Positions 6,337 through 43,853 of a stretch of 64,000 bases of DNA are shown piece after piece (the first letter of the stretch is position 1; each line of letters begins with the position of its first letter). A model generated the notes under the pieces. It was not told where the DNA came from. It saw only the letters and a program-made list of their open reading frames with translations, and made no database searches. Made by a program: the position numbers and the translations under genes. Source of the stretch: a virus; the IMG/VR virus record IMGVR_UViG_3300035047_000215. One strand, given 5' to 3'.

Positions 6337-6363
6337 CCCGGCAACTTATAGGGAACAATAATC

Positions 6364-9715: not shown

Positions 9716-9733
9716 TTTTAAAGGAGTAGGAAA

Positions 9734-13621: not shown

Positions 13622-13633
13622 AGGAGCGCCAGC

Positions 13634-22193: not shown

Positions 22194-22202
22194 AGGGGAC
22201 CC

Positions 22203-25984: not shown

Positions 25985-25995
25985 AGGTGCAACGA

Positions 25996-28900
25996 ATGGG
26001 ATTTCCAAGCAAGATAGATGCTGACTGGGTAGATAACCTGACCGATGAGGAAGCGGACAAGATCCATAAAAAATCATGGGAAACCGACCCGGAATACCGG
26101 AAAATGTTTGAAGATGATCCGGACATCCCGGACCCGTCCATTTATGCGCCCAAGCCCCCGCCCGAACCGCCAAAAGGGCGGACCGTCGGCGGGACCCTGA
26201 AAGATGTCGCCATATCCGGAGCCAAAAGCATTATCAGTACCGGTGAGATGGTTCCCGGGTTACTCGACATTCCCACAGGCGGACGTGTCAGCAAAGCCAT
26301 GGAAGACCATTTGGGGTATGATCCCCAGGGGACCAAAGACTGGCTGAGTTCCCATTATTCCGATGCCCAGAAGCGGGCCAATCAGAAGCTGGCAGAGGCA
26401 GAGGGTTTCTGGGGTACCGTCAAAACAGCATTGCAGAACCCGAGCACCATCGGCCATGCGGCCGTTGAATCCCTTCCGCTGATGTTTGCAGGCGGCGCCA
26501 TCGGGCGTGGCGGTGTAAAGGTGCTGAATAGATATGGCCCTAAAATCTGGGTGAATGCCAGCACCAAAATGAAAATGGCCCTGGCTGCCGGCGCAGGAGA
26601 GGGCGCGGTAATTTCCGGGCTATCTGCTTCTGAGATCCGGCAGGAAACCGAAGATGGTTATCTGTCTTTGGGCCAGTCAGCCGCGGCCGTCGCTTCCGGT
26701 TTGCTGGGTGGTGCCATTGGTTTCGCCGGTGGCCGGGTGGCGCAGAAACTGGGTATTGCGGACCCTGACACCATGCTTGTGGGGTTGAGCAATGACCTGA
26801 GACCCCAGCATATTGCCAAACGGATTATCACCGGTGGGATCACCGAGGGCGTGTTTGAAGAACTGCCCCAGGAGTCCCAGGAAGCGATATGGGTCAATGC
26901 GGCCCTTGGCAGGCCCTTAATGGAAGGTGTGGCCGAATCAGGGGCAATGGGTATGCTGGCGGGTGGATTGATGGGAGCCGGCACACAGCTGAAGCCAGGG
27001 CGGCAGGAACAGGCCCCGCCCGATCCCCGGCGCAGAGTCCTGGCCGAGGCGACCCACAACCCGGATAATCCCAGCCTTGCTATCGGAGCTGCCACGACCG
27101 GCATGACCACGGTTCAGGCTTCATCTGTCACCAGACGGTTGAATGATCTTGAGGATCCGGGCGCACGGGAAAAGGCCGTGGATGAAATCGAAAAGGCCCT
27201 TGTCAAAGCCGCTCCCACCCCGGAAGAAGGGAAGCGCCGGGCCAAAGCCTTTGCAGGGTATGCCCTGGGCAAGATCGATGCCGGGGAAGAAATCGAGATC
27301 GATGCGGACCTGGTAGAGTACGCTTCACTGGACCCGGTAGCCAAAAACGAATATGCCAAAGATACCATGTTGGGCGCTGCCGAGGAAACCATCCAGACCC
27401 TGGAAAAGAAAATCGGCAACCTGGAGAAAATCAAGAAGCCGACGCCGGAGATGCAGGCAAACCTTGAGCAGTTCAAAGCGGATCTGGACGTGGCCATGCA
27501 GTCATATGACGCATTGTCCGCAGCGGACCCGGCCCAGGAGGCAGCAGAAGAAACAGCCACGGAAACGGATGCCAAGCCAGATGAAAAATCCGACCAGGCC
27601 CCGGCCATGGAAGACAGTGAAGCGGCCGACCTTTATACGGACGAGGAACTGGATAAGGTAGCCGGCCCGGACATCACCCCCGACGACGTTCAGGAATTTC
27701 TCAGCTACGGCGTGACCGAGGAAGAAGTCGCGGCCATGGACACAGAGACGGCCAAGCAGACGCTGTTTGATCTGAGGACCCAGGCGGAGAATCTGGCAAT
27801 CCAGGAGGCCGAATGGGGGAACAGGGATGCCGGAGTGCCGGAGACCGACGAGGCCGGCACCAGAGATCAAATGGCATGGAAGAATCGGAAAACCGATATC
27901 CCGGAAACGGATGAAGGCGCCAACCGGGATTATTACCAGATCGAGCAGGACATTAAGGGGCAGCGGGAAAAGGCAAAGGTTGACAATAATCTTGAAAAAG
28001 TAACGAATGATTCTGATAAGGTTGACAATCCTCCACTTAAAGACACCGATTCCGCTGACATGGATGAGGCAACCCTTCGGCAAACCCTGGACGGGGGGCA
28101 GACGGTCCCTGAGTCAGTGCTTGACAATCACCCGGATCTGAAAAAGGAGTATTATGATAAGGTCACGAACAACGAGCTTGACATGGTACTTACCGGGGAT
28201 GGAAAGATCGGGTTCAAGGAAATGGATCCGGGGTATATCCCTCAAGATGTCGGAAAAAACAAGGACGGAGAAAAAATCTTTACCCGTCCAGTAGAGCCGG
28301 GCAAGCGATACGTTGATGATTCAAATGGCAACCAAAGCGGCACAACCGGCACACCGGAACAGCTGTTCAAGGAAGGCAAGACTCGTTTCCTGACGGATGA
28401 GGAAATCCAGAAGTTTACAGCAGAAAGCCTCCAACCCGGCCAGACCGTCACCTGGAAAAACAAAAAGGGCAAGGAGTTCACCGGGACCCTGAACAAGCAG
28501 CAGGGGAAAAACTGGCACATCACCCTGGATAACGGTAACAACTCCATCATGCCGGGAACACAGCTGTCACCTGTTGAGTCAGAGCAGAAGACCCACGACG
28601 ACAAGGATATCGAGATCGATGGCGATACCGTATCCGTGGACATGCCGGCAGCTGAAGAAAAGACCCTGAAGCCGGCGGAACAGAAAAAGTACCTGATGGA
28701 TGAGATCGATGCGGCCATCAAGAAAGCCCCGGATTCAAAAGAGCGGCCAACCAGTGGGGGAAACGATGCCTCAATGGATTTCAGGTACAACAAACTGAAT
28801 TTCGGTTATATCACCATCGAGGTGCCCAATGATGGTGAATATAATGTATTGAACACCAAGACCGCCCTGGCTGAGTTTAAGAAGCGGGCCAAGAGATTTC

Positions 28901-31900
28901 CGGCCAAAGAATTTGAACAAACGAATCCAATGCCAAAACCTGCCGGAACCAGGCCGACGAACACCAGGGTAACCGGGTTTGCCGGTGACTATATCCGAGA
29001 ATACGCCCCAAAACGGTCAACAAAGGTGCCGGATCCGCCTGCCCGTGGTGGGAAATACTATCAACAGGATGGTTGGTTCTCGAATGGCGTGACGGCTGTC
29101 AAGGCTACTCCAAAGAACCTTAGCAAACAGTATCCCAAAGAAGCCTTCCCGGATGGCGGCCTTGAAAAACTTATCAATGACGGTCAGACAGACAACCATG
29201 AGGTGACAGCCGTAACAGAGCTGTATGAAAGCCCGGATGCTGATATCCAGACCCTTAAGGCGGTTGTGTTTGCAGAAGACGCACCACCAAATAAGAACAC
29301 GGCTGTGTTTGATCCCCGGCAACTTGATCTGGTTTTTAGGTTTTTCCCGGATGCCAAAATGAGCATCAAGTTCGGGGAATCCTCCGCAGGCGAATATGGC
29401 ATTTTGTTTTTCAAGGACAAGGGCCAGGTGGTTGGGGTTGTTCAGTCCCATTACACCAAACGGGAAACAGACAGCCACATCAAAAGGGCCCTATCGGAAA
29501 TACAGCGAAAGCGCGACGTTGAGAAAGAGAAGCAGGCCCGACCGAGCGAGACGGCAGACCCTGTAGCCGACCGGCTGAAGCGGGCCAAAGAGGAACTGCC
29601 GACAGGCTACTACATTCAGAGGGAAAGGGGGTCTGACGGGAGCGCGGTTTTTTCATTAATGAAAGACGGGCGATACGTTGTCAATGGCCTGAATCATTCT
29701 GTCAATGGGATCGATGAGGCTGTCCGGCAGGCCAAGTCCCGGGTGAAGAAAACAGAACCCGTCACCCCTGCATCCGTAGCCTATGGCCACCTCAAAGCCG
29801 GCAAAGGCTTCAAGAACATCACCGAAGCCCGCAAGGTCATCGGGGAGGCGACCGGCCAGGAGATAAAACCCGGCACCACTGAAGCAAAGCAGATGGATGA
29901 AGTGATTGAAGTGGTGGCGGTTAGGGTCGCCCGGGAGATAGTGGCAGAGGGCAAATCTCCGCAGGAAACATTTGATGCCCTGGTGGACCTTCAGGACCGG
30001 ATGCCGAATCTGTCCGTCAGAACATCCACATCGATGCGGAACCAGGCATATTCGACGCCATTGCCTTTGGCATATGTTGCATCATTGCGGGCCGGTATCA
30101 CCGGGAAAACAAGCGTTTTCGAGCCCTCAGCTGGCAACGGGGCCTTGTTGATCGGGGCCAACCCCAAAAAGGTCATTGCCAATGAAATTGATCCGTCCCG
30201 TGTGTTAAATCTTCAGTACCAGGGCTTTGGCAAAGTCATGCAAGAAGACGGGTCCGCCTTTACGGTTTCCATGATGGATGACAGGGTGGATGTTGTCGTT
30301 GGCAACCCGCCTTTTGGCACTGTGAAAGATGATCGTGGAAATTCCAGAAGATGGACAATCACGCACGAATACGAAACCACACAGATCGATCATGCCATGG
30401 TCTTCAACGCCCTGGAGCAAATGAAGCCCGACGGCCGGGCCGTGTTTATCATCGGCAGCGTGAAGGACCAGAACACAGAAGAACGTGCCCGGATGAACCT
30501 TTACCGGAATCCGACCAAGGTGCAGTTCTTCAAGCACCTCATGGACAACTATAATGTCGTTGACCTGTTTTCTGTATCTGGTAAACTATACTCTAAACAG
30601 GGTGCCAAATGGCCGGTCGATGTCATTGTCATAGATGGTTCAGGCAAATCTGCCATGACACTCCCCGGGGCAAAGCCGCCCCCGTATATCAGCACACTGG
30701 AACAATTAAAGGAGAAACTTGATGGCACAAGAACTGATAGCCTGGATGCCGACGGAACACGAGGACCTGGAGACAGCACAGTACCTGCTGGCGATTCAGA
30801 TACCCAAGGGACGGGTATTGGACAGAACGATGTTCATGAACAACTGGGGGTGGGGACTCCAGTCGATGGCGGAACGGTCCGGGAACCTGGAGGAAGTGAC
30901 GGAACATCTGGCGTCGAAGCTGGAGAGCCTGGGACTGCTTCCGGAGGGGGTGGACGCGGAAAGTCTGGAACAGATGTTGGATCCGGACACCAACCCACGG
31001 ATAGCGGATCTACTGAGAGCGTGGGGGATAGCGGACATGGTACCCAACAAGCCGCTGACGGAGATAAACAAAGAGGCGGAAAAACTGATACAGGAAAGGG
31101 ACAGCAGCACCTGGGTGGACAGTCTCCGGTATCCATAGATCAGGAGCTTGCCAATACATCTGAAGCAGACCTGGATGCCATGCTTGATGAAGCATTCGGG
31201 GAAGACATCACCGTACCACAGGATATTTCCGAAGAACTTCAGAACATGTCAGAGGATGAAATCGATAGCCTCATCGATGACGTGTTTGATGCACCTGCCA
31301 AAACCGCCAAAACCAAAATCCCGGATGAAAAACCGGACAGGGGCCGGCGATCCACGGACGTGGGCCTTCAATCCACCAGGGCGAAGAACGAAGAAGCAAT
31401 AGAGCGGTATTTGAAGAACTGGGCCAGACGTGAAGCCCGGAAAAACAAACCCCCGAAACGGCCGCCCAAAAATCCCCCAAAGGATCCGAAAGACAATCTG
31501 GAAGATATCGCGCTGGAAAGCCTGGAAGGTGTCAAGGATGCAGTCTCCGGACTGAGCGCCCTGTTCACCCCGCGCAACACCCTTTCTTCCGGGTTCATAT
31601 TCAACGAAGAAACATACAAGGCCGCAAAGCCTTATTTTGTCAGCGCCTGGAATCATGCCAAGGCTGCCGGCCATTCCTTGAAACAACTTATTCAGCACCT
31701 GGCCACCCAGTTTGGCGCAGAAATAAAGCCGTATCTGAAACGGTTTTTCGTTGACCAGACCGCAGCAGAAAAAAACAAGGACAAAAAACCGCCCGAGCCC
31801 AAAGAGGAAAAGGCGGATCCAGAGACCCAGGTTGCATATACCCCTGCCAGCAAATCCACAGCTATCGGCACCCTTATGCCGAAGAATATGGCTGAATCCA

Positions 31901-34900
31901 TCAATACTGCACTGAAGGCGGTTCAGGATCAGCACGGGGATATCGATAAATATGTGGCGGATCAGCTGGGATACACGGTTGAGGAAGTCGTCGGGACCAA
32001 GGGTAAATTCGGTTATTTCTCAGCTGAACAGGTGGATGCCATTGCCTTGGCCATGAACAATATCAGCGTCGGGTCCGGGTTTATCATCGGGGATCAGACC
32101 GGCGTAGGTAAGGGCCGGGTTGTGGCGGCCATGATCCGGTATGCCATGCGCAATGATATGGTGCCTGTCTTTGTGACACACAAGGCATACCTCTATTCAG
32201 ATATGTACCGGGACCTGTCAGACATTGGGATGGCTGATATAGCTGACAGAATCCTGATGACCAATTCCAATGAAAAGATCCCGTTGACCGCCGATGGGGA
32301 AAAGATTCTCAGCACCAAGGCAACCCACCTCCAAAACTTGCGTCGGATGACCAGTGAGGGAGAGATCTCCAAGGATTATGATGTGGTTTTCACCACATAC
32401 GACCAGATGAATACCACTGGTTCGGCCAGAAGGGTTTTCATGGAGACCATCACCCGGGGCCGCGGCATGCTGATCATGGATGAAGCCCACAATGCCGGAG
32501 GAACGGCAGGTGACAGGGTGAATCCGCAGACAGGCCAGGTTCCAAGATCGATCTGGTTCAGAGAGCTGATTCAAAACGCACACTCCACTTTCTATTCATC
32601 CGCCACATATGCGAAACGGCCGGATACTATGTCCCTGTATTCCAGAACGGACATGCGGCTGGCCGTGGACGATATCAATGATCTGGCCCATGCCATCGGG
32701 CAGGGCGGCGTACCCCTTCAGCAGGTCACGGCCACCATGCTGGCTGAGGCCGGGCAGTATATCAGGCGGGAACGCTCGTTTGACGGCGTGGACTATAACA
32801 CTGAGACGGTTGAGGTCGATCAGGTAAAAGCGGCGGCCATGTCTGTTGCGTTTGCTGACATCAAGAAATTCAGCGATGAATATATCGGCGGGGCCATGCA
32901 GGATATTGAAGACGGAGGCGCAGCGGGCGGCACCAGTGTTTCTGGTTCATCATCCGCATCGGACCGGAACATTTCCACGACCGGGTTTACATCGGTGATG
33001 CACAACCTGATTGGCCAAACCCTTTTAGCATTGAAGGTCCCGGCAGCTGTTGACCTTGCCATCAAGCAGTACCAGGAAACAGGCAAAAAACCGATCATTG
33101 CACTGGCCAACACCATGGGGTCATTCATAGAAGAACACGCCCTGGAGAACCATCTGACCCCGGGTGATGGCATCGGGTTGTCATTCAATCATTTGATCGC
33201 CAATTATTTGGACAAGACCCGTAGATACAAAGAGGGGAAAAAGCCCAACCAGGTTGAACGGTATATCACGGATGAACAACTGGGGCCGGAAGGCGTCCGT
33301 GAATTCAACCGGGTCAAGAACATGATCTATGACCTGGATTTTTCCGGGGTTCCCATATCACCCGTTGACTATGCGCTGGGGAAATTCAAAGAGGCCGGCA
33401 TATCAGCCGGGGAGATCACCGGCAGACATCACACCATAGAGTACCGCAAAGACGGCACCACCACTTATCAGCGCAGGGGCACCAAAGAGACATCAAACAA
33501 GGCAAAAGTTGACCTTATGAGGGATTTCAACGAGGACAAGGTGAATGCCATGGTCCTCAATCAAAGTGGATCCACAGGGCTATCCCTTCATGCGCTGCCA
33601 AAGTGGGAGGGCCACGATCCGGCTGAACGTGTCATGATCCTGGTGCAGACCGAGGCCAACATTGACACCCACATGCAGATGCTGGGCCGGGTCCATCGGG
33701 CCGGCCAGGTCAAGACCCCGACATATATTCAGCTGACAGGAAATATTCCCACTGAGATGCGCGGAGCCGCCGTATTGGCCGGAAAAATGGCCAGCTTGAA
33801 TGCCAACACCACGGCAGCCAAGGGCAGCAAGCTGGAAGCCGAAGGGGTTGTTGACTTTATCAATAAGTATGGGAACCGGGTGGTGGCCAACATCATGGGT
33901 GACTTTCCGGAAATCCATGAAGCCCTGGGATCTCCGTTACCTCAAAAAGACAGCACCGCTTCCGGACTTTCGGAGCTGGGGGCTGCCAGGAAGGTGACGG
34001 GCCGGATACCGCTCTTGAGGACCATCAAGGAACAAAAAGACCTGTATGACATGATCCTGTCTGAATACAAGGATCTGATTGAGCAGCTGGATGCCATGGG
34101 ACAAAACGACCTGGAGGCCAAATCGTTTGATACCGATGCCAGGACCCTTAGCCGGGCGGTTGTCTTTGAAGGCAGGGGGCAGTCTCCTTTTACCAGGGAA
34201 GCCGTTGCCGAAGTCGTGGACATGAAAAAAATCGGCCGGTCTTACACCAGCCAGGAGGTTACCAACCTTCTGAAGCAATATGTTCTGGGCATGGACAGCA
34301 CCACGGCCAAAAATACAGATCGTACCATCCAGGAATTGATGGTAGACGTTGAGGTGGCAAAAGAAGAACGGTATCAGGATAAGATGGAAGCCTTCCGTGT
34401 CTTCCTGAACGAACAGCTGGAGGATATCGAGGACGAAGACCGGAGGCAGGCCACAAGGGTCCGTCTGACCACCATTGCAGACCATTGGCGATTCATTCAT
34501 GACGTGGCCATCCCGGGTACCGTCTGGGAATTTCCACTGGGAGACACATATTTCCCCATGGTTGTTTTGAACGTCCAGCAAAAAGGATCCCCCAAAAATC
34601 CGTTGGCCCTGGGAACATGGCGCGTGACATTTGCCGTGCCGGATTCAGCCAGGCGGTTTGAGATCTCATTTGCCGCCATAAACAACCTGGTGAGAACGGA
34701 ACAGGATCTATTGGACGGCAACCGGGGGCCGGCGACCGACGCAGACCTTGCCCGGTTTGACAGGGCCAGGAGGACAGCCAGGGAAGACCGGACCATCATG
34801 ACCGGCAACCTGCTGGCAGCGTATGCGAGATATTCCAGGGGCCGGATTATCAACTTTACCGACAATAATGGGAAAGTGCGTCAGGGGATCTTGATGCCGC

Positions 34901-37900
34901 AAACCTTCAACACGCAGGAAGCCTTTCAGGCACAAAGGGTCGTGTTGGACAACCCGGACAATATCATGGCCGTGTTGAACGAAGGGATTGCCGTCAAATC
35001 CAGACGCGGTGATTTGATCGCCGGCAATGTCCGGAGCAGATCCGGAGCAATAGACCCTGATACGTTTAGCCTCAGTGTACCATCGTCCCGGGTCAAGGGG
35101 GCGACATACTTCCTGAACCAGGGGTTGTTGGATGCCATTGGGCGGGACCGAGAGTTTGTGAAGCGTGGCAACCGGATGATAGCAACGGTCCCCAGATCGC
35201 GGATACGGGGCGCTTTTAAGCACATGCTCGACAACATGAACGAGCTGTTTGAAAATGCCAGCGACAACCAGCGCGTCAGAAATGTTTTGGGCATCGAGGA
35301 TTTGACGGTTGAACAGGTGGGTGAATCGGCCACACAGACAGAAGACAGCCAGGCCCAGTTTTCCACAAATGCCGATTACACCCCCGGCCAGGGCCTGGAT
35401 CTGAAAGATATCCAGTCCCGGTTCAAGGGCCAGAGCCTTTTCCTTACCAAAGATGGAACCATCGCAATCCGGATGAAAAACGGCATGGGCCTGGTGGTCC
35501 GGATGGTCAATTTTGGCAATGGTGACACCCGTATGGCCATGGATATGGGCCGCATGAAAGAAGGCGGGGTAGTCCTGGGCAAATACGAAAATCTGGAAAT
35601 CCAGCTGAACCAGGATCTGGCAGACACCCTGACCCGGGATCATGAGCTGTGGCATTTTCTGGAAGAAAACCTGCTTACCGAGTCAGAAAGAATGGTGTTC
35701 CGGAACAAGGCCAAAGCATACGAGGCGGCCGGCAAGTTCAAGTTTGAATGGCGGTCTGACATGAAAGAGAACTCTGCCAATGCCTTTGCCCAGTTCCTCC
35801 AGGAAAGAGAACTTCACCGGGGCACGGCCCTGGGCAGAGTCATCCAGAAGATCCTGGATTTCATCGATGGGCTGAGACACATCGCCCAGATGTCTGAACG
35901 GAAGTTGGCCAGGGAAGTGGAAGGCGGGCAGATGTTTAGCCGGCAGCCGGTTCACGGGCAATCCGGACAAACCTCTTTTGCGGCAGCACCCGGGCGGGAT
36001 TCTGCTGCATTCAAGAAATGGTTCAAAAACAGCAAGGTCGTGGATGAAAACGGCGAGCCCATGGTTGTGTATCATGGGACCATGAGAGACTTCAATATCT
36101 TTGGCAGCGGCCGAGAGGGCCAGATATCTACCAATATCGGCACCCATTTTGCCAAGGATCCAACCGTGACAGATGCGTTTACCATGGGGAACTACACCCT
36201 GCCATCCAGTCATTCCGTGGATACCTGGAACCCGGAAAACAGCTGGTACCGGGACAAAGACGGAAACGTCAGGTTCGATGGTGTTGTCGTGGTTCAGAAC
36301 CAGATGGAAAACAAGGTGGAAGTTCATAACGTCGAAAAGCATGGTCCGCTGTCCAATCTAAAAAGCCACTGGGCGCCCAGGGTCGCGGCACCTGGTGGAA
36401 GGGTCCACCCCACCTATTTATCGATCCAGAATCCCCTTGTGGTTGACAATGATCCGTCGTTTTCCCTGGATGACTATGACGTGGCCAAAGAGATTGCCAA
36501 GGTGGTACTGCCGATGGACCAGGCCCTCTTTGTTCATCTGGCGACCAGGAACCTTATGCTGTCAGAAGAACAGGCCGCAAAAGTGTGGTCAGCATTCAAG
36601 GATGGAGACCCGGTAACTTCTCCCGCGGCCAGCAGTTTGGCGGAAATAATGGGCGGCAAGGACGGGCTTAAATACCACACCTGGGAAGAATATATTTCTG
36701 CCAACAACGGCATTATGAACCATGCACCCAGGGAAAGGGTTGTGCAGCTGTTGACACGGGCCGGGTATGACGGGGTTGTGTATAACAACACCTCCCGGAA
36801 CGAGGTGATGCCCGGGGCGGACCCAAAAGCATATATCATCCTGGAACCGACACAGGCAAAGTCTGTTTACAATCGAGGGGCCTGGGACGGGACAAATCCG
36901 GATCCCCGGTACAACACCCAGGAAGACAGACTGGCATATGATGATGCCCTGTTCGCCAACAAGTATGTCAGCCGGAGAGTGGGCCGGAAACTCACGGAAA
37001 AGGAAAAGGAAGTGGGCCGGCTGGCCTATGGGATCAAGGGTTTGAATCCGGATCACGTCAAGAAAGCGGCGCAGGAAATGGCCGACAAGATCCCGGGGGA
37101 TAAGAGCAAGGCTATTCTGGTTCCCATCCCCGGGCACACCGGTGACACGGCCGCCAACGTCGCCATTGCTGAACAGATAGCCAAAATCACCGGGGCAAAG
37201 ATTCAGGATATCCTGGTAAGAGAGGCTGGCCCGTCACAAAGGGACTTGAGGGTTTCCCGGAAAAAAACACAATCCCCGAAAGAGATCGTCACGGCCGCTG
37301 GGGAAAAGATTTCCCGCACAGAAGACGTGTACTTTATTGATAATGTGATTACTTCCGGGGCCACCATCCGGGCGGCGCGGGATGCCGTTGGCGGGGGCCG
37401 GGGCCTGGTATATGCCAAGTCTTTTTCAAAGGGTCCCAAATACACCTTTGCCGGACCCGAGGCCCTGGGCGCGGATAAGGGCATGGCCTTTGAAGCCCAG
37501 CAGATGAGAGATGCCGGCAAAAGCCGGAAAGCTGTATGGGAAAAAACCGGATGGTGGGAGATCATCCCCGGGTCTGATGTCTGGTCATGGGAGATCGATG
37601 ACAGCAAGGCAAACGTCAATCTGGATGCACTTCAATCACTCCCCGGCCGGCTGGACCTTGCCACGCAGTACCTGAGAGATCAGGGGCACATCACCGGCAA
37701 ACAAGATATAGGATCCCCGGCAGCGACCGAGCCCTTGCGTAAAAAAGCGCTGGCATGGGCAGATGAACAGATCAAATCCGGAGAGGCCGCGTCTATACCG
37801 CTTGATCAGGTGCTCGACCACCCAGAGCTACATGAAAACTATCCTTTTTTGAAAGGGATAAAAGTAACAAGGGCCACCAGCCCAGAGTATGCTGGGGTTT

Positions 37901-40900
37901 TTGATCCGGACACAAACACCATAGGAGTATCCGGGTTCATACATGAAGATCCGAAACAGGTTTTCCTGCATGAAATCCAGCATGCCATCCAGGACCATGA
38001 AGGGTTTGCGACTGGGGGGAACCCTGATTTATTTGTCAATGACCCGACTTTTACGCCGACCCCATTAAGTAAAAGACTTGCGGCGGCGGTACGGCGGCAT
38101 GAAGAAGCGGGAAGGGGTCCTGATGATTATTTCAAGGAACGCGGGCCAGATGGTGAATGGATAACTTCCGTCGAAGATGCCAAGAGATTTTTAAAGGCTG
38201 TCAGGTCCGCAAATGCCTATAATACCTATCGCCTACTTACCGGCGAGGCCCAGGCCCGCCTGACAGAACGGCGCATGGTCTTAAAGGGAAACAAGACCCG
38301 TAAAGCAGAGCCCCCCTGGATCACCCTGAAAGGAATAATGCAGGAAGAAGGATTGTTGCAGGAGGGCCAAGAGCCTGAAGACGTTTTGATCACCCGGTAT
38401 GTCGAAAGCGTGTCAGCCAGCGTGGTAGAAGATAAAAATGAGATCAAAAGGCTGGAGTCTGGCAAAAAGATCAAGGTGTTCCGGGCTATGCAGGTCATTG
38501 ACGGAGAACTTTACCCACCGATGTCCGCCAAGGTAGACGGCAAATTGAGGGAGCCCACCAAAATAGGACAATGGGAAAAAGCGGATGAAAACCCGGAGCT
38601 GATCAAGAAGGGCAATAAGTTCAAGCTGGACAAAGCCAACAAGTCATCCATTGCAGCTGCATATAACCCATATTTTCACACGTCAGCGTCGCCGTTGAAT
38701 GACCAGTTCTCATCTGCTTATAAAAGGCCAAATCTGGTCACTGTCGAGGTAGAGATCCCAGCCAGTGAATTGACAAGCGGATACAAAGCCGAGGGAGCCA
38801 AAGATTCCGTTGGTGAAAAGAAATGGCATTCCGGACCAGTGAGCAGCAAACTATCTGCCGGGAAAAAGCGCACAGTTATCCTTTCCAGATACGCCAAGGT
38901 GTTGCGTATCGTCCCTGACAGTGAAGTCGCGGGAACTATTGCAAACCTTTTGGAAGGTGAGAACGTCACCATCCCTGAAAAGGTAGTTACTCTATCGCTC
39001 AGGGCAGAATTGGAAAAACGAGGGGTGCCTATAGCCGGAGCCCAGTATTCCACATCCTCCGACCGTAAAGACCCCATGTCCGTCTTGCCGGAACCGGCCA
39101 GGGTCCGGATGAAGAAGGCCCGGGGAGTGGATCATACCTCTTTCATCGATGAGGCAAAAAACTGGTTCCAGAAAGTCAAGGAACAGACTGCCCACTTCCC
39201 GGAGCTGACCCGGGTACAGGATAAGAGCAAGCGGGCCATATTCAAGGAAATGCTCCGGCAGCATCAGGAGATTCCGACGATATCCCAGGATAAAGCGGCC
39301 CGGGCCATACACGGGTTTGTGTCCGGGATGACCAAGCAGGAATATGACCTGTATTCCCTCCGGCTGATCCTGGGGGATGAAATAGCCAACCTGAACGATG
39401 GGGCCAGGACAGAAAAAAACCTGCCTTTCGGGTTCAAGTCTGCCAATGAGATCCGGGAGAGTTACCGGAAAATCAATCAGATGGTGGAGGCTTCCCCGAA
39501 GGTCAAGAAGGCCCTGGACGCCCGGCAGGAATATCAGCACCAGGTGGCACGGCGCCTGGTGGAACACGGGATCTTGAACAAAGATGTCCTGAAGAAAAAA
39601 GAGTATTTCCACCACCAGGTGTTGCAATACTGGAACCTGAAGGAACGGGCCTTGAAAGGTCTGGGTACCGGTTCCAAAGATGCCCGGTCCCACTGGCGGC
39701 CCTGGATGACAAAACGGAAAGACTCCCCGCTTGATTATAATACCGAGTATGTGGAAGCCGAGCTGATGGCGCTGGCCCAGATGATTGCCCAGGCCGACAC
39801 AGCTGACAGCCTGAGAAAGATCCGGGCGGAAGCTGATATCTTGCCGGAACTCAAACAGGCGGCCAAGCAGGTCAACACACAGATGATCGATGCCATCTAT
39901 TACAAACTGGCCAAACAGGGTAAATGGGAAGTGACCAAAGACGGGGAACCTGTGGATCCGCTGTTACCCTTCAAGCAGAAAATTGCGATCGGTTTCAGCC
40001 AGCTGGAGAAGCTGGCAAAAGACAACTCCCTGACCTATGACCCCGGGTTTGAACATCTGGTGGATGCGCTGGCAAAGGGAAACACTTCTCACCCCCAGAT
40101 ATGGCAGTTCCTGTCAAACCAGATCCAGAAAGAACACTCCGGGTCCATGCAGGCAGCGATGATATACAAAAACATCAAAGCCCGGGACCAGTTTATAAAG
40201 GATACCCTGGGAGACCGGTTCAAGACCGCCGAGAACATGGTACCGGATGGGTATGTGGCATGGGAGCCCAAAAAGAACACCGGTTGGTTTAAGGTCAACA
40301 CGATTGCGGACCAGACCCTGGAAAAAGTGCTTTCCGGAGAAAAGGCATTGCAGGACCCGGACGTTAAACAGATTCTGGCAAAAGGCCGGCCCCAATACTG
40401 GGTGATCCCGGAAGGGCTGGCCGATACCATGGATAATTTCAGACCGGTCCCCAGTGATTTTGCCCTTGGCAGACTGTCCGGCCGGATCATGACCGGGTGG
40501 AAGCAGTATATTCTGTTAAATCCCCTGTCTGTCATGAAATACAATATCAATAACATGAGCGGCGACCTGGATGCCACGCTGGCATTTGATCCAAAGATTG
40601 CCACCTACTCCAGGCAGGCATTCAAGGACATCCGTAAATGGATGAAATACGGGAAAAATGAAGAACTGGACATCGCCCGGGATAAAGGGGTGATCGGGTC
40701 CGGGTTTGCCGTCCAGGAGGTGGAGGACACAATCCAGATGCTGGGTGTCAACCGGGTGGTGGATGAAGTGATGCTGGAGAAAAACCCGAAACTGGTGTCC
40801 AAATACTGGGCCACAGTAAAAGGGTGGTCAACATGGCGGGAAAACACGCTCAGGCTGGCAGCGTACCGGTATTTCAAGGATCAGCACAAAAAAGGGGTCT

Positions 40901-42057
40901 ATGAGACGTTCGGCGCTTCCAAACCGTCAGAGATCCGGGCCCTGGTTGATAGCGGCCGGGCTGATGATGCAGCTGCCAAAATGGCCCGGGAGCTTTTGGG
41001 CGACTATGGGGCCATATCCCGGCATGGTGAAATGCTCAGAAAGCACCTGATCCCGTTCTGGTCGTGGATGGAAATCAACCTGCCCCGGTACGTTTACCTG
41101 TTGCGGAACCTGAAGCATGAAGGCGGCACGGCCGGCACCGGCACCAGGGCGGCGGGCGTTCTGGCAAAGCGTGGATCCATGTTCGCCTTGAAGGCGTCCC
41201 TGCTGTACGGCGCAATCTCCCTGTGGAACCTGACAATGTTCCCGGATGAGGATGACGACCTGGGGGAAGCAAAGCGGGGACAGCTTCAGCTGATCCTGGG
41301 CAGAACCAAAGATGGATCCATCCGGACCTTGCGCGTTGAGGGTGCATTGTCTGATGCCCTTTCGTGGTTCGGAATGGAAGATCTTCCCGGGGATGTCAAA
41401 GACGTGTACCAGGGCCAGGCAAACCTGACAGACAAGGGCGTTGATATGGGAAAGGCCCTGGTCAATCGATTTGCCCAGGGGTTGAGGCCCGATGCCAAGA
41501 CCATGGCCGAAGTGGCTGCCGGCAGGAAATTTTATCCGGACGTGTTCTCCCCTAGGCCTATTCGGGACACGGTTGAACATGTCCTTGGTACCGTGAAAAT
41601 GCAGATGCCGTATCAGTGGATGACCGGGAAACCGAAAAAGGGGAGCACGGCATCTGAGCACCTGGTGAATGATTTGCTCCAGATGTTCACATACACCACG
41701 GAAGCTGGTGTGCAGGCTTACTATGATACCCGGTCGCAAGTGTATGACTGGAAGGATAAGAACGGGCAGGAGTCAGGCGGGGGCCAGCCGACATCCAGGG
41801 GCAATGCCCTGTATTATTACAAACAGGCCATGAAATACGGAGACCTGGAAGCAGCAGACAGGTATATCCGGAAATACGCTGAATTGGGCGGGACCTACCA
41901 GGGGCTGAAGCAGTCCATTCGGATGGCGCACCCGCTTTCAGGGATAAAGAAGCAGGACCGGGCCAGATTCTTGAGTGAGCTGACCCCGGCCCAGAGAGAC
42001 CGCCTTAACCAGGCGATTCAATGGTATCAATCAACATATTTAGGGAGAAAATCATGA
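25996..42057 (+). CDS. Giant multi-domain 'polyvalent' protein (~5,350 aa): MTase + SNF2/SBNO-type helicase + 2 x HExxH + ART-like + PRTase + unassigned regions
   Basis: A single stop-free frame of 16 kb. ATG 25996 is preceded by AAGGTG (25984-25989); the alternative GTG at 25987 is the listed start. There is an ATGA overlap with the next gene at 42054-42057. Motifs are listed in the domain features below. Confidence 0.9.
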   Translation: MGFPSKIDADWVDNLTDEEADKIHKKSWETDPEYRKMFEDDPDIPDPSIYAPKPPPEPPKGRTVGGTLKDVAISGAKSIISTGEMVPGLLDIPTGGRVSKAMEDHLGYDPQGTKDWLSSHYSDAQKRANQKLAEAEGFWGTVKTALQNPSTIGHAAVESLPLMFAGGAIGRGGVKVLNRYGPKIWVNASTKMKMALAAGAGEGAVISGLSASEIRQETEDGYLSLGQSAAAVASGLLGGAIGFAGGRVAQKLGIADPDTMLVGLSNDLRPQHIAKRIITGGITEGVFEELPQESQEAIWVNAALGRPLMEGVAESGAMGMLAGGLMGAGTQLKPGRQEQAPPDPRRRVLAEATHNPDNPSLAIGAATTGMTTVQASSVTRRLNDLEDPGAREKAVDEIEKALVKAAPTPEEGKRRAKAFAGYALGKIDAGEEIEIDADLVEYASLDPVAKNEYAKDTMLGAAEETIQTLEKKIGNLEKIKKPTPEMQANLEQFKADLDVAMQSYDALSAADPAQEAAEETATETDAKPDEKSDQAPAMEDSEAADLYTDEELDKVAGPDITPDDVQEFLSYGVTEEEVAAMDTETAKQTLFDLRTQAENLAIQEAEWGNRDAGVPETDEAGTRDQMAWKNRKTDIPETDEGANRDYYQIEQDIKGQREKAKVDNNLEKVTNDSDKVDNPPLKDTDSADMDEATLRQTLDGGQTVPESVLDNHPDLKKEYYDKVTNNELDMVLTGDGKIGFKEMDPGYIPQDVGKNKDGEKIFTRPVEPGKRYVDDSNGNQSGTTGTPEQLFKEGKTRFLTDEEIQKFTAESLQPGQTVTWKNKKGKEFTGTLNKQQGKNWHITLDNGNNSIMPGTQLSPVESEQKTHDDKDIEIDGDTVSVDMPAAEEKTLKPAEQKKYLMDEIDAAIKKAPDSKERPTSGGNDASMDFRYNKLNFGYITIEVPNDGEYNVLNTKTALAEFKKRAKRFPAKEFEQTNPMPKPAGTRPTNTRVTGFAGDYIREYAPKRSTKVPDPPARGGKYYQQDGWFSNGVTAVKATPKNLSKQYPKEAFPDGGLEKLINDGQTDNHEVTAVTELYESPDADIQTLKAVVFAEDAPPNKNTAVFDPRQLDLVFRFFPDAKMSIKFGESSAGEYGILFFKDKGQVVGVVQSHYTKRETDSHIKRALSEIQRKRDVEKEKQARPSETADPVADRLKRAKEELPTGYYIQRERGSDGSAVFSLMKDGRYVVNGLNHSVNGIDEAVRQAKSRVKKTEPVTPASVAYGHLKAGKGFKNITEARKVIGEATGQEIKPGTTEAKQMDEVIEVVAVRVAREIVAEGKSPQETFDALVDLQDRMPNLSVRTSTSMRNQAYSTPLPLAYVASLRAGITGKTSVFEPSAGNGALLIGANPKKVIANEIDPSRVLNLQYQGFGKVMQEDGSAFTVSMMDDRVDVVVGNPPFGTVKDDRGNSRRWTITHEYETTQIDHAMVFNALEQMKPDGRAVFIIGSVKDQNTEERARMNLYRNPTKVQFFKHLMDNYNVVDLFSVSGKLYSKQGAKWPVDVIVIDGSGKSAMTLPGAKPPPYISTLEQLKEKLDGTRTDSLDADGTRGPGDSTVPAGDSDTQGTGIGQNDVHEQLGVGTPVDGGTVREPGGSDGTSGVEAGEPGTASGGGGRGKSGTDVGSGHQPTDSGSTESVGDSGHGTQQAADGDKQRGGKTDTGKGQQHLGGQSPVSIDQELANTSEADLDAMLDEAFGEDITVPQDISEELQNMSEDEIDSLIDDVFDAPAKTAKTKIPDEKPDRGRRSTDVGLQSTRAKNEEAIERYLKNWARREARKNKPPKRPPKNPPKDPKDNLEDIALESLEGVKDAVSGLSALFTPRNTLSSGFIFNEETYKAAKPYFVSAWNHAKAAGHSLKQLIQHLATQFGAEIKPYLKRFFVDQTAAEKNKDKKPPEPKEEKADPETQVAYTPASKSTAIGTLMPKNMAESINTALKAVQDQHGDIDKYVADQLGYTVEEVVGTKGKFGYFSAEQVDAIALAMNNISVGSGFIIGDQTGVGKGRVVAAMIRYAMRNDMVPVFVTHKAYLYSDMYRDLSDIGMADIADRILMTNSNEKIPLTADGEKILSTKATHLQNLRRMTSEGEISKDYDVVFTTYDQMNTTGSARRVFMETITRGRGMLIMDEAHNAGGTAGDRVNPQTGQVPRSIWFRELIQNAHSTFYSSATYAKRPDTMSLYSRTDMRLAVDDINDLAHAIGQGGVPLQQVTATMLAEAGQYIRRERSFDGVDYNTETVEVDQVKAAAMSVAFADIKKFSDEYIGGAMQDIEDGGAAGGTSVSGSSSASDRNISTTGFTSVMHNLIGQTLLALKVPAAVDLAIKQYQETGKKPIIALANTMGSFIEEHALENHLTPGDGIGLSFNHLIANYLDKTRRYKEGKKPNQVERYITDEQLGPEGVREFNRVKNMIYDLDFSGVPISPVDYALGKFKEAGISAGEITGRHHTIEYRKDGTTTYQRRGTKETSNKAKVDLMRDFNEDKVNAMVLNQSGSTGLSLHALPKWEGHDPAERVMILVQTEANIDTHMQMLGRVHRAGQVKTPTYIQLTGNIPTEMRGAAVLAGKMASLNANTTAAKGSKLEAEGVVDFINKYGNRVVANIMGDFPEIHEALGSPLPQKDSTASGLSELGAARKVTGRIPLLRTIKEQKDLYDMILSEYKDLIEQLDAMGQNDLEAKSFDTDARTLSRAVVFEGRGQSPFTREAVAEVVDMKKIGRSYTSQEVTNLLKQYVLGMDSTTAKNTDRTIQELMVDVEVAKEERYQDKMEAFRVFLNEQLEDIEDEDRRQATRVRLTTIADHWRFIHDVAIPGTVWEFPLGDTYFPMVVLNVQQKGSPKNPLALGTWRVTFAVPDSARRFEISFAAINNLVRTEQDLLDGNRGPATDADLARFDRARRTAREDRTIMTGNLLAAYARYSRGRIINFTDNNGKVRQGILMPQTFNTQEAFQAQRVVLDNPDNIMAVLNEGIAVKSRRGDLIAGNVRSRSGAIDPDTFSLSVPSSRVKGATYFLNQGLLDAIGRDREFVKRGNRMIATVPRSRIRGAFKHMLDNMNELFENASDNQRVRNVLGIEDLTVEQVGESATQTEDSQAQFSTNADYTPGQGLDLKDIQSRFKGQSLFLTKDGTIAIRMKNGMGLVVRMVNFGNGDTRMAMDMGRMKEGGVVLGKYENLEIQLNQDLADTLTRDHELWHFLEENLLTESERMVFRNKAKAYEAAGKFKFEWRSDMKENSANAFAQFLQERELHRGTALGRVIQKILDFIDGLRHIAQMSERKLAREVEGGQMFSRQPVHGQSGQTSFAAAPGRDSAAFKKWFKNSKVVDENGEPMVVYHGTMRDFNIFGSGREGQISTNIGTHFAKDPTVTDAFTMGNYTLPSSHSVDTWNPENSWYRDKDGNVRFDGVVVVQNQMENKVEVHNVEKHGPLSNLKSHWAPRVAAPGGRVHPTYLSIQNPLVVDNDPSFSLDDYDVAKEIAKVVLPMDQALFVHLATRNLMLSEEQAAKVWSAFKDGDPVTSPAASSLAEIMGGKDGLKYHTWEEYISANNGIMNHAPRERVVQLLTRAGYDGVVYNNTSRNEVMPGADPKAYIILEPTQAKSVYNRGAWDGTNPDPRYNTQEDRLAYDDALFANKYVSRRVGRKLTEKEKEVGRLAYGIKGLNPDHVKKAAQEMADKIPGDKSKAILVPIPGHTGDTAANVAIAEQIAKITGAKIQDILVREAGPSQRDLRVSRKKTQSPKEIVTAAGEKISRTEDVYFIDNVITSGATIRAARDAVGGGRGLVYAKSFSKGPKYTFAGPEALGADKGMAFEAQQMRDAGKSRKAVWEKTGWWEIIPGSDVWSWEIDDSKANVNLDALQSLPGRLDLATQYLRDQGHITGKQDIGSPAATEPLRKKALAWADEQIKSGEAASIPLDQVLDHPELHENYPFLKGIKVTRATSPEYAGVFDPDTNTIGVSGFIHEDPKQVFLHEIQHAIQDHEGFATGGNPDLFVNDPTFTPTPLSKRLAAAVRRHEEAGRGPDDYFKERGPDGEWITSVEDAKRFLKAVRSANAYNTYRLLTGEAQARLTERRMVLKGNKTRKAEPPWITLKGIMQEEGLLQEGQEPEDVLITRYVESVSASVVEDKNEIKRLESGKKIKVFRAMQVIDGELYPPMSAKVDGKLREPTKIGQWEKADENPELIKKGNKFKLDKANKSSIAAAYNPYFHTSASPLNDQFSSAYKRPNLVTVEVEIPASELTSGYKAEGAKDSVGEKKWHSGPVSSKLSAGKKRTVILSRYAKVLRIVPDSEVAGTIANLLEGENVTIPEKVVTLSLRAELEKRGVPIAGAQYSTSSDRKDPMSVLPEPARVRMKKARGVDHTSFIDEAKNWFQKVKEQTAHFPELTRVQDKSKRAIFKEMLRQHQEIPTISQDKAARAIHGFVSGMTKQEYDLYSLRLILGDEIANLNDGARTEKNLPFGFKSANEIRESYRKINQMVEASPKVKKALDARQEYQHQVARRLVEHGILNKDVLKKKEYFHHQVLQYWNLKERALKGLGTGSKDARSHWRPWMTKRKDSPLDYNTEYVEAELMALAQMIAQADTADSLRKIRAEADILPELKQAAKQVNTQMIDAIYYKLAKQGKWEVTKDGEPVDPLLPFKQKIAIGFSQLEKLAKDNSLTYDPGFEHLVDALAKGNTSHPQIWQFLSNQIQKEHSGSMQAAMIYKNIKARDQFIKDTLGDRFKTAENMVPDGYVAWEPKKNTGWFKVNTIADQTLEKVLSGEKALQDPDVKQILAKGRPQYWVIPEGLADTMDNFRPVPSDFALGRLSGRIMTGWKQYILLNPLSVMKYNINNMSGDLDATLAFDPKIATYSRQAFKDIRKWMKYGKNEELDIARDKGVIGSGFAVQEVEDTIQMLGVNRVVDEVMLEKNPKLVSKYWATVKGWSTWRENTLRLAAYRYFKDQHKKGVYETFGASKPSEIRALVDSGRADDAAAKMARELLGDYGAISRHGEMLRKHLIPFWSWMEINLPRYVYLLRNLKHEGGTAGTGTRAAGVLAKRGSMFALKASLLYGAISLWNLTMFPDEDDDLGEAKRGQLQLILGRTKDGSIRTLRVEGALSDALSWFGMEDLPGDVKDVYQGQANLTDKGVDMGKALVNRFAQGLRPDAKTMAEVAAGRKFYPDVFSPRPIRDTVEHVLGTVKMQMPYQWMTGKPKKGSTASEHLVNDLLQMFTYTTEAGVQAYYDTRSQVYDWKDKNGQESGGGQPTSRGNALYYYKQAMKYGDLEAADRYIRKYAELGGTYQGLKQSIRMAHPLSGIKKQDRARFLSELTPAQRDRLNQAIQWYQSTYLGRKS
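26182..26991 (+). other. Giant ORF segment: glycine-zipper/hydrophobic N-terminal region
   Basis: aa ~66-335 contain repeated small-residue hydrophobic blocks: ESLPLMFAGGAIGRGGV, MALAAGAGEGAVISGLSA, AAAVASGLLGGAIGFAGG, GAMGMLAGGLMGAG. Confidence 0.6.
29990..30700 (+). other. Giant ORF segment: N6-adenine DNA methyltransferase domain
   Basis: Motif I is VFEPSAGNGALL (~30114-30150). Motif IV is VVGNPPFG (NPPF at 30304-30315). Confidence 0.75.
32040..34900 (+). other. Giant ORF segment: SF2 helicase of SNF2/strawberry-notch type with long C-terminal extension
   Basis: GDQTGVGKGR (GVGKG at 32101-32115), LIMDEAHN (32476-32490), LNQSGSTGLSLH (~33553-33591) and QMLGRVHRAGQ (33676-33708). Confidence 0.75.
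35560..35700 (+). other. Giant ORF segment: first HExxH zincin-like motif
   Basis: ..GKYENLEIQLNQDLADTLTRDHELWHFLEENL.., with HELWH at 35641-35655. Confidence 0.45.
36000..36915 (+). other. Giant ORF segment: ADP-ribosyltransferase-like domain (of the kind seen in polyvalent proteins)
   Basis: FKKWFKNSKVVDENGEPMVVYHGT..FNIFG..THFAKD...GYDGVVYNNTSRNEVMPG..YIILEPTQAKSV. This is recalled similarity only; no search was run. Confidence 0.45.
37030..37420 (+). other. Giant ORF segment: ComF-type phosphoribosyltransferase domain
   Basis: ..AILVPIPGHTGDT..PSQRDLRVSRKK..EDVYFIDNVITSGATIRAARDAV. The PRPP-binding loop is at ~37327-37365. Confidence 0.65.
37450..38290 (+). other. Giant ORF segment: second HExxH zincin-like metallopeptidase domain
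   Basis: ..WSWEIDDSKANV..LDHPELHENYPFL..VFLHEIQHAIQDHEGFATGG..LLTGEAQARLTERR, with HEIQH at 37969-37983. Confidence 0.55.
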
Positions 42058-42452
42058 AGAAGTATTTGGCGATGATGATGATAGCGGTAATCGGATGTTT
42101 TCTGTTTATGGGATGTCTTGGAGAAAAGACAACCGGCCCGCCCGTGACGGAAAACAAGGTGTTGAAAACGGCAAATGCCATCTATCTCGATATCAGAACG
42201 ATTGTCACGGACCCCGAAGTTAAACCGATGTTCACGGACAAAGAACTGGATCGAATGGCGGAGCTGGAACAGGAGTACCTGGAAGCGGCCAAAATATTAA
42301 GGGCTTTTCCGGACGATGCCGGTGCCATCGATCAGCTGTCCTGGGTTGCAACAGAGATCCTTTATACAATCAATGCCGTGAAGGTGGAGAAATACCGGCC
42401 CTATGTGGCGGCAATCCGGATATCGATCAAGCTGTTGAGGAATCATATCTGA
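42054..42452 (+). CDS. Lipoprotein (lysis-cassette associated; spanin-like?)
   Basis: ATG 42054 overlaps the giant-ORF stop (ATGA). MKKYLAMMMIAVIGCFLFMGC is a signal peptide with a lipobox-like FMGC. Confidence 0.65.
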   Translation: MKKYLAMMMIAVIGCFLFMGCLGEKTTGPPVTENKVLKTANAIYLDIRTIVTDPEVKPMFTDKELDRMAELEQEYLEAAKILRAFPDDAGAIDQLSWVATEILYTINAVKVEKYRPYVAAIRISIKLLRNHI

Positions 42453-43125: not shown

Positions 43126-43494
43126 ATGGACTGGAAAGATTATTACCCGCTGTTCAAACCAGATGAGTTCGTCTGCAAATGTGGATGTGGCAAACAGGAC
43201 ATGCAGAAAGAACATATGGATAAGCTATTCAGGGCCAGAATCAATGCTGGAATTCCATTTATCATTACCTCAGGATCTCGATGTTTGGAGCATAATAACT
43301 TTGTTGGTGGATCTGCTACTTCTGACCATCTGAAAGGTTATGGATCAGATATTCGAGCAAATTCTGGCAGAGCTAAGTGGCTAATCCTGACGGCTTTGAT
43401 AAATGCTGGTTTTAACAGAATAGGTATTGGTAAAAACTTTATTCATGCAGGCAATGATCCTCAGAACTCTGAAATGGTGGTTTGGACATACTGA
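43126..43494 (+). CDS. Endolysin, peptidase M15 (D-Ala-D-Ala carboxypeptidase-like) family
   Basis: 122 aa. ..ITSGSRCLEHNNFVGGSATSDHLKGYGSDI..FIHAGND matches the H..D..H zinc-ligand pattern of M15A/M15_3 peptidases. The gene is AT-rich. Confidence 0.75.
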   Translation: MDWKDYYPLFKPDEFVCKCGCGKQDMQKEHMDKLFRARINAGIPFIITSGSRCLEHNNFVGGSATSDHLKGYGSDIRANSGRAKWLILTALINAGFNRIGIGKNFIHAGNDPQNSEMVVWTY

Positions 43495-43710: not shown

Positions 43711-43750
43711 AAAGGGCAGTCACCTGGAGGTTGGTGACTGCCCTTTATTT
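43711..43750. terminator. Bidirectional rho-independent terminator
   Basis: Perfect 14-bp stem AAAGGGCAGTCACC (43711-43724) / GGTGACTGCCCTTT (43733-43746) with an 8-nt loop. T-runs follow on both strands. Confidence 0.8.
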
Positions 43751-43831: not shown

Positions 43832-43853
43832 ACTGTCTTTCCTGGGTCCCTGG

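Follow-up and report, generated by a model that had tools for sequence, protein, structure and literature searches.

A cysteine-free polyvalent protein of 5,353 residues, a probable ejection protein of an uncultivated temperate phage

A 16-kb gene at the end of the structural block

The virus record IMGVR_UViG_3300035047_000215 was analysed as a stretch of 64,000 nucleotides (nt), here called the window, which covers nearly all of a metagenomic phage genome of about 64.35 kilobases (kb; contigs of 64,356 and 64,344 bp from the Joint Genome Institute, JGI). A single gene takes up 25% of this genome, and its product, a chain of 5,353 amino acids (aa) referred to below as the giant protein, is the subject of this study. 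Genes for the terminase, an SU10-type portal and adaptor and the major head protein lie upstream, together with Hc3-like genes; lysis genes and an integrase lie downstream. The coordinates of these and other features, along with the motifs read in the protein, are given in Table 1.

Table 1. Features of the giant gene and its surroundings (motif positions are residues of the giant protein)
Feature	Coordinates	Strand	Remarks
Four upstream genes, 528/506/456/295 aa	20607..25984	+	No Pfam/PHROG match; cysteines 0, 0, 5, 0
Ribosome-binding site AAGGTG	25984..25989	+	6 nt 5′ of ATG 25996; direct read
Giant open reading frame	25996..42057	+	5,353 aa, 591.5 kDa, isoelectric point 5.96; no cysteine, no tandem repeats
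N-terminal module, aa 50-343	26143..27024	+	Gly/Ala-rich, moderately hydrophobic; phrog_30335 2.7e-48
Unassigned region, aa 344-1337	27025..30006	+	Acidic at aa ~400-700; linker aa 511-555 (composition)
N6-adenine DNA methyltransferase, aa ~1338-1505	30007..30510	+	Motif I EPSAGNG (1376), motif IV NPPF (1437)
Polar G/S/T/D low-complexity linker, aa 1572-1726	30709..31173	+	51% G+S+T at aa 1601-1700
Strawberry-notch-type SWI2/SNF2 ATPase/helicase, aa 2007-2664	32014..33987	+	GVGKGR (2036), MDEAHN (2161), QSGSTGLSLH (2523), QMLGRVHRAGQ (2561)
First zincin-type metallopeptidase-like module, aa 3101-3340	35296..36015	+	HELWH (3216)
ART-PolyVal ADP-ribosyltransferase with variable insert, aa 3341-3640	36016..36915	+	Pfam first block, conserved second block; VVYHGT (3357), GYDGVVYNN (3590)
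Phosphoribosyltransferase-fold domain, aa 3661-3810	36976..37425	+	Phosphoribosyl pyrophosphate (PRPP)-loop motif VYFIDNVITSGATI (3778)
LPD23 (large polyvalent-protein-associated domain 23), aa 3816-3875	37441..37620	+	PF18838, 47.4 bits, cut-off 27
Second zincin-type metallopeptidase module, aa ~3920-4100	37753..38295	+	HEIQH (3992), GE (4083-4084)
Orphan conserved module, aa 4135-4350	38398..39045	+	Motifs YNPYFHTS, NDQF
C-terminal all-alpha module, aa 4365-5353 (~990 aa)	39088..42054	+	IPFWSW at 5019; hydrophobic helix ~5063-5081
Lipoprotein-like gene	42054..42452	+	132 aa in independent contigs; product starts MKKYLAMMMIAVIGC, lipobox-like signal
M15 peptidase (endolysin-type)	43126..43494	+	Pfam Peptidase_M15_3 1.4e-14
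Terminator-like hairpin, strong, bidirectional	43711..43746	.	14-bp stem, 8 G-C pairs; closes late operon
Tyrosine integrase	43854-44924	-	Adjoins 49-nt tRNA-Pro-like stretch

The listing of open reading frames (ORFs) shows one plus-strand frame from a GTG at 25987 to 42057, and translation from the ATG at 25996 yields the 5,353 residues without an internal stop. This bears out the first-pass annotation of the DNA, made from the letters alone, which had proposed a single stop-free frame of about 16 kb. The same annotation had placed a ribosome-binding site before the ATG and an ATGA overlap with a following lipoprotein gene. Both are read directly, the TGA stop (42055-42057) sharing the ATGA with the ATG of the next gene at 42054. 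At about 54% GC and about 4% stops among random codons, our arithmetic sets the chance of 5,353 stop-free codons at about e^-220; the frame is therefore not explicable by chance. Confirmation that it is uninterrupted, a further point raised by the annotation, was obtained in silico. At least seven samples (JGI, Logan) yielded contigs that tile the ORF over nt 1-9989 and 6457-16062; these are 99.99-100% identical to it, show 0-1 mismatches and contain no indels. The called 5,353-aa gene is also present on the independent 64,344-bp contig. Given this agreement of independent contigs with overlapping coverage, a chimera or frameshift is highly improbable. No repeats were detected in the 16-kb gene by Tandem Repeats Finder, from which we conclude that the product is not a repetitive fibre. 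A megablast of 20 kb against deposited phages returned no close relative, only a 49-nt tRNA-Pro-like match.

The gene had been described as the last of the virion operon. It is the last of the structural block, before the lysis genes, but the late operon itself runs on through the lipoprotein gene, a DUF1353 gene and the M15 peptidase gene as far as the terminator-like hairpin at 43711-43746, which sits between the lysis genes and the integrase. The ORF listing starts the lipoprotein ORF at 42021; the ATG at 42054 is the start called in the independent contigs and the one that yields a lipobox signal peptide.

Enzyme modules along the chain

All of the motifs listed in the first-pass annotation were found in the translation, in the order stated there. 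Its description of a multi-enzyme “polyvalent” protein likewise stands: Pfam thresholds are passed, and profiles and alignments support the phosphoribosyltransferase (PRTase) fold and both zincin signatures. At least eight domains were counted, namely N6_Mtase, AAA_34/Helicase_C_4, two HExxH zincin modules, ART-PolyVal, PRTase, LPD23 and an orphan module described below. The Pfam calls among these (N6_Mtase, AAA_34, Helicase_C_4, ART-PolyVal and LPD23) all lie above the gathering thresholds of their families. Scans with Pfam, NCBIfam and PHROG profiles revealed no RNA polymerase family in the giant protein, and single-sequence searches of the PDB with both halves of the chain gave no match.

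The first thousand residues past the N-terminal module (aa 344-1337) have no Pfam or NCBIfam match and align only with a large unknown profile, phrog_11358. The methyltransferase that follows matches N6_Mtase over aa 1425-1502 (25.8 bits against a cut-off of 20.4), with a weak Eco57I match and additional matches to PHROG DNA methyltransferase families. The G/S/T/D-rich spacer noted earlier at 30720-31140 corresponds to the polar linker at aa 1572-1726. The helicase is covered by AAA_34 (aa 2007-2277, 1.1e-24), Helicase_C_4 (aa 2472-2664, 9.4e-21) and ResIII (3e-8) and has superfamily 2 (SF2) motifs I, II, V and VI.

A HExxH motif with a downstream Glu constitutes the zincin signature as defined in PMC5512222, and the giant protein has two HExxH sites only. 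In the HELWH module, for which 23 homologues were found, an alignment of 13 sequences shows both His and a downstream Glu (ENxAN) to be invariant and the Glu of the motif nearly so; the module has no match in Pfam, no sequence match in the PDB, and a profile search of the PDB returned noise. As regards the HEIQH module, 34-35 of 35 sequences keep the H/E/H residues and 33 of 33 have the downstream G-E; weak matches link it to DUF6782 and phrog_1233. Between the two sites, the first block of ART-PolyVal (aa 3350-3397) scores 44.6 bits for a cut-off of 31.2 and covers only the first third of the model. Iterative search of the collected proteins revealed, past a variable insert, a second block (aa ~3580-3640) whose conservation extends to more than 220 sequences, and the giant protein keeps the residues that are most conserved in the family. 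As to the PRTase domain, NCBIfam gave only a weak match to PyrR, and a five-sequence profile run against the PDB recovered PyrR (7e-4), PRPP synthetase, ComF, APRT and UPRT, in an alignment that spans the PRPP loop.

Beyond the second peptidase module, more than 1,200 residues had been left as unassignable. They do lack a Pfam family or PDB match, but they split into two parts, the orphan module of about 215 aa and the C-terminal module. The orphan module is 50-74% identical in 117 other multidomain proteins, which carry ART-PolyVal, LPD3, LPD23 or MuF_C. Such strong conservation suggests an important function. Its AlphaFold2 (AF2) model is confident, with a predicted local distance difference test score (pLDDT) of 86 and a predicted template modelling score of 0.81. 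The module has no Pfam family; a profile search of the PDB gave noise, the best Foldseek match to the PDB has an E-value of 0.39, and tblastn against deposited phages and plasmids found nothing. One of its carriers, a 1,987-aa polyvalent protein with LPD13, MuF_C and ART-PolyVal, is encoded at 9001-14964 of a Victivallales metagenome-assembled genome (MAG; locus L131, GCA_017417585.1). The gene lies amid housekeeping genes and adjoins a Y1 transposase, with no phage or conjugation genes visible.

End modules and the absence of cysteine

Giant proteins of 42 deposited phages have matches to the N-terminal module, always at their own N-termini and at 39-44% identity. Two of these relatives are of particular relevance. 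The product of gene 60 of Pseudomonas phage H66 (gp60; 3,787 aa) shows 41% identity (aa 60-340 of the giant protein against 34-314) and is recorded as “verified by mass spectrometry as part of the virion”; 8P_023 of Pseudomonas phage 8P (5,145 aa; 44% identity) is annotated in GenBank as “structural protein”. Both of their genes directly precede holin and lysozyme. One further relative was labelled “DarB-like” by its submitters. A second carrier of the N-terminal, HELWH and orphan modules occupies the same slot, downstream from an SU10-type adaptor. The Gly-zipper hydrophobic blocks of the first-pass annotation fall at aa 71-380. Among the protein's ten most hydrophobic segments, five lie there; they are uncharged Gly/Ala stretches with the highest density of small-xxx-small patterns in the chain.

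At the other end of the protein, an exhaustive HMMER scan with the C-terminal module retrieved 2,218 cluster representatives (clusters counted at 50% identity); of these, 1,557 reach E ≤ 1e-30. Its position is nearly always the extreme C-terminus of the carriers, which range from 1,000 to 6,639 aa. Among 112 loci that were fetched, no more than 30 aa separate the end of the module from the stop codon in 89 of 104 cases, and the median carrier ORF is at least 3,264 codons long. Three relatives (P0167, P0226 and P0191) measure 6,639, 5,612 and 5,267 aa, so that the giant protein is not the largest of its family. Carriers occur on at least 192 IMG/VR contigs, many of them of 45-70 kb, and in MAGs or chromosomes of Desulfobacterota (the closest, at 49% identity), Nitrospirota, Gemmatimonadota, Acidobacteriota, Bacillota and others. 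None was found in 50,697 deposited phages or 72,556 plasmids, and the module corresponds to no Pfam, NCBIfam or PHROGs family.

The AF2 model of the C-terminal module is almost wholly alpha-helical. Used as query in a fold search of BFVD, it gave 20 matches at E ≤ 1e-3 (best, 5e-25), all of them terminal fragments of giant proteins of uncultured phages, annotated with LPD, zeta toxin, ART-PolyVal, lytic transglycosylase, RelA/SpoT, methylase or helicase domains. Accordingly, the module behaves as a C-terminal chassis for variable cargo. What lies upstream of it does vary: only 18-20 of the 112 loci have the methylase or the helicase in common with the giant protein, and 3-7 the other tiles. 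Phages of Desulfobacterota, Nitrospirota, Gemmatimonadota and other phyla appear to fuse almost any effector cargo to this module. The search also gave a weak match to a C-terminal fragment of an N4-like virion RNA polymerase (vRNAP; E 0.12). The N-termini of 80 full-length carriers fall into about 40 unrelated sequence clusters; a Gly/Ala-rich window is found there in 65 of the 80, against 28 of 80 for an internal control region, and the median peak hydrophobicity of the two windows is 1.31 and 0.82, respectively. A tblastn of neighbouring virion genes against the 112 loci (E 1e-5) showed almost no conservation and so gave no demonstration of synteny within the family, in part since the giant ORFs themselves fill the 10-kb flanks.

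Identity of the C-terminal module with the domain of T7 IVP-D (internal virion protein D) or of the PLxRFG proteins was considered and rejected at the sequence level on the basis of BLAST, absence of a PLxRFG motif, absence of an NCBIfam match, and hhalign. Deep profiles of 153 and 117 sequences were built for the latter comparison. With the 153-sequence profile, hhalign probability was 0.1% for T7 gp16 and 0.4% for the PLxRFG family; as a positive control, the PLxRFG profile aligned with gp16 at 16.5% (E 0.0015).

Throughout its 5,353 residues the giant protein has not a single cysteine. About 61 would be expected from the 1.14% measured in the other 45 genes of the window (Poisson P = 4e-27). 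In the family of the C-terminal module, 100 of 150 representatives are equally devoid of cysteine. Known proteins follow the same trend: H66 gp60 has one cysteine, 8P_023 two, and T7 gp15 (747 aa), T7 gp16 (1,318 aa) and N4 gp50 (3,500 aa) none. The avoidance may reflect counter-selection of disulfides in proteins that pass the tail channel and periplasm in unfolded form. Neither the ejection-protein review nor the N4 papers returned by our literature search contain the word “cysteine”. Three of the four unassigned genes immediately upstream of the giant gene also encode cysteine-free products, which makes them candidates, from this trait, for partner ejection proteins. Cysteine-free upstream genes are those of 221, 528, 506 and 295 aa (19942-23723 and 25097-25984).

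A proposed role in delivery, and the phage that would carry it

The combination of an N-terminal module homologous to a proven virion protein, a string of enzyme domains and a C-terminal chassis leads us to propose, with a probability of roughly 0.7, that the giant protein is a polyvalent internal virion (ejection) protein of a temperate phage. Proteins of the polyvalent kind, known from phages and conjugative elements, combine 2-15 diverse domains per polypeptide and are encoded beside packaging and virion genes or transfer genes (PMC5512222). The giant protein shares with them the many effector domains, the late-gene neighbourhood and the multi-domain build. The hub domains held in common are two zincin metallopeptidases (MPTases), ART, a SWI2/SNF2 ATPase and an N6A methylase, to which PRTase and LPD domains are added. 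It differs in having no detected MuF or portal fusion and, instead, an F116-type N-terminal module and an unannotated C-terminal module of about 990 aa; the helicase is of the rarer Strawberry-notch (Sno) type and the 215-aa module, absent from Pfam, is an extra. H66 gp60, F116 p59/p60, phiC725A_54 and 8P_023, giant virion proteins of the PLxRFG type (PMC4819975; PMC5217972), have the same slot, a homologous N-terminal module and a comparable size. With H66 gp60 and 8P_023 the giant protein also shares an LPD23-MPTase block and the near absence of cysteine. H66 gp60 has been described as a homologue of T7 IVP-D with an embedded domain destined for the cytoplasm, “reminiscent of N4 gp50” (Hardies 2016, PMC4819975).

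Further parallels can be drawn. The model for N4 vRNAP comprises a membrane-associating N-terminal domain, loosely connected domains and, at the C-terminus, a large domain, with 4 ± 1 copies per virion and a channel of about 35 Å (PMC13434306), and its MPTase lies directly upstream of the terminal domain (Iyer 2017, PMC5512222). The layout of the giant protein, with an N-terminal domain, linked enzyme beads and a C-terminal domain, parallels this model. The likeness to N4 gp50 would extend to a giant single ejected chain, a membrane-associating N-terminus, the MPTase upstream of the large C-terminal domain and the lack of cysteine; the differences are the absence of an RNA polymerase domain, other cargo and no detected sequence similarity. 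T7 gp16 is likewise the largest of the ejection proteins; its gene comes last among those for internal virion proteins, and it is largely alpha-helical, cysteine-free and endowed with an added enzymatic domain, but the giant protein is four times larger and has neither hhalign similarity to it nor a Foldseek match in the PDB. Relative to the T7 IVP-D family (Hardies 2016), the helical character and the place downstream of tubular-tail genes are found, and profile homology is not. As for the giant virion proteins with PLxRFG domains, the giant protein lacks such a domain, its C-terminal 1,000 or so residues show no detectable relationship and its enzyme cargo is largely different. A last comparison concerns P1 DarB, a packaged methyltransferase-helicase anti-restriction protein proposed to protect incoming DNA. 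The two proteins resemble each other by domain types, with an N6-adenine methylase (motifs I and IV) and a helicase in one chain; P1 differs in being a myovirus, with packaging into its head requiring other Dar proteins, and the helicase in the present protein is of the Sno/SNF2 type.

The first-pass annotation had read the protein as polyvalent, probably packaged and injected, and possibly cut by its own peptidases. All of the indirect evidence gathered agrees with this interpretation, which is thereby supported. Its statement that no characterised protein matched this size and domain combination went too far as a claim of novelty: phage 8P encodes a protein of 5,145 aa in the corresponding slot, relatives from metagenomes are up to 6,639 aa long, and the enzyme types are found in Iyer 2017 (PMC5512222). 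In the light of that work, of PMC4819975 and PMC5217972 and of the 8P protein, the giant protein is a large new example of a known design and introduces no new principle.

A number of observations weigh against an ejected effector protein. The support for packaging and ejection is indirect, the phage being uncultivated, and its podovirus morphology is deduced from synteny. The model of the C-terminal module is of moderate quality only (pLDDT 72); Foldseek found no PDB match for it (best E 0.16, generic helical repeats), the profile search of the PDB gave noise, and hhalign gave probabilities of less than 1% for T7 gp16, T7 gp15 and N4 gp50 and, whether the profiles were shallow or deep, of 0.2-0.7% for the PLxRFG family. 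In the absence of a sequence or fold match, a role of this module in encapsidation or ejection rests on its position, its all-alpha character and the behaviour of its family. The N-terminal segments remain below classical transmembrane hydrophobicity (maximum Kyte-Doolittle value, 1.36). The catalytic Glu of the ART could not be located. Finally, the PRPP loop of the PRTase reads D-N at aa 3783-3784, also in the four closest relatives, where the catalytic motif is described as D-D (Iyer et al., PMC5512222). Because of this change the domain may be inactive or divergent, and we regard it as a PRTase-like domain that may be non-canonical.

Part of these observations would suit a protein that is mainly a structural component of the ejectosome, a gp16-like conduit or inner-membrane complex in which the enzyme domains are secondary, decayed or regulatory. 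The IVP-D slot, the all-alpha C-terminal module and the hydrophobic N-terminal module fit this idea, as do the D-N in place of D-D and the fact that H66 gp60 was treated foremost as an IVP-D homologue (Hardies 2016, PMC4819975). However, the catalytic motifs of the methylase (NPPF), the helicase (I/II/V/VI) and both HExxH...E sites are intact, and the cargo, about 70% of the chain, differs from one relative to another, as expected of arms-race effectors. A mainly structural role is therefore unlikely; it would in any event be compatible with effector delivery. Distinctly less probable is an unpackaged late enzyme complex, acting in the cytoplasm for example to methylate or process progeny DNA before packaging. 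Cotranscription with late genes is in line with such a complex, and replicating DNA might be the substrate of a methylase and a helicase. Against it stand the homology of the N-terminal module to a protein that mass spectrometry has confirmed in virions, the definition of ART-PolyVal and LPD23 in delivered proteins (PMC5512222), and the complete avoidance of cysteine, which is shared with known ejected proteins and has no cytoplasmic rationale.

The unusual length and the metagenomic origin of the sequence could raise the suspicion of an assembly artefact, a chimera or collapsed frameshift joining separate genes. With at least seven independently assembled samples in agreement and free of indels, and with relatives equally long or longer, we give this explanation hardly any weight. 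Size alone, along with non-significant BFVD matches to tape-measure proteins (E 0.05, probability 0.12-0.14), might evoke a repetitive structural fibre or a tape-measure-like protein. The lack of tandem repeats, the enzyme domains above curated thresholds and a setting with no tail sheath, tail tube or tape-measure genes make this extremely improbable.

If the giant protein is indeed an ejection protein, a few copies would be packed into the head during assembly, and at infection the cysteine-free chain, for the most part unfolded, would pass through the tail channel before the DNA or along with it, in the manner of N4 vRNAP and T7 gp16. The end modules would serve encapsidation and engagement with the envelope or membrane. 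Once in the cytoplasm, the cargo would refold; its methylase-helicase pair may then shield the incoming DNA from restriction, as P1 DarB does, and the ART and PRTase may act on host proteins or on nucleotide- or NAD-based defence. Active pieces may be released from the chain by the peptidases; self-processing of polyvalent proteins by MPTases is likewise a proposal in PMC5512222. Such a protein would represent an extreme of the “effector string on a delivery scaffold”, a 591-kDa chain that has to be packed alongside the DNA and passed through a channel measuring a few nanometres across. Its Sno-type helicase and methylase, ART and PRTase are candidates for counter-defence functions among phages of little-studied anaerobes.

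The main leads from this work are the two unnamed modules and the cysteine-free signature. Naming the C-terminal and orphan modules would label thousands of giant “hypothetical” phage proteins, and cysteine avoidance may provide a cheap signature of ejected proteins. Taken as a whole, the proposal that the C-terminal module defines an unnamed delivery or encapsidation chassis family, that the orphan module is a new enzyme or inhibitor directed against a highly conserved host target, and that cysteine avoidance predicts tail-ejected proteins from sequence only is a tentative one, to which we assign slightly less than even odds.

Concerning the phage itself, the portal and adaptor genes (3443-5254 and 7848-8522) match two families of recent definition, SU10_portal (PF23899) and SU10_adaptor (PF24175). 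Other structural genes are distantly syntenic with those of F116/H66, being only about 26-27% identical, and the order of the Hc3/tubular-tail-B-like gene and its neighbour is conserved with F116-type phages. These relationships tie an F116-type structural group to a portal-adaptor pair of the SU10/kuravirus type, and gene content of this kind implies a short-tailed virion. Scans of the window found no tail sheath, tail tube or tape-measure context. Judging from its genes, the phage is temperate: the tyrosine integrase lies by a tRNA-Pro-like fragment, and genes for replication protein O and DnaB occur at 56232-58411. The fragment (43788-43836) is 49 nt long and 94% identical to tRNA-Pro genes of Stenotrophomonas phages; ARAGORN detected no complete tRNA. 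Probably, it is the attP core of a phage integrating into a tRNA-Pro gene, and as such it could help find the host. The early/replication arm on the minus strand (45082-51048) encodes a second SF2 helicase (ResIII/Helicase_C), an 851-aa AAA_23 protein (SbcC/Rad50-like) and a calcineurin-like phosphoesterase (SbcD/Mre11-like).

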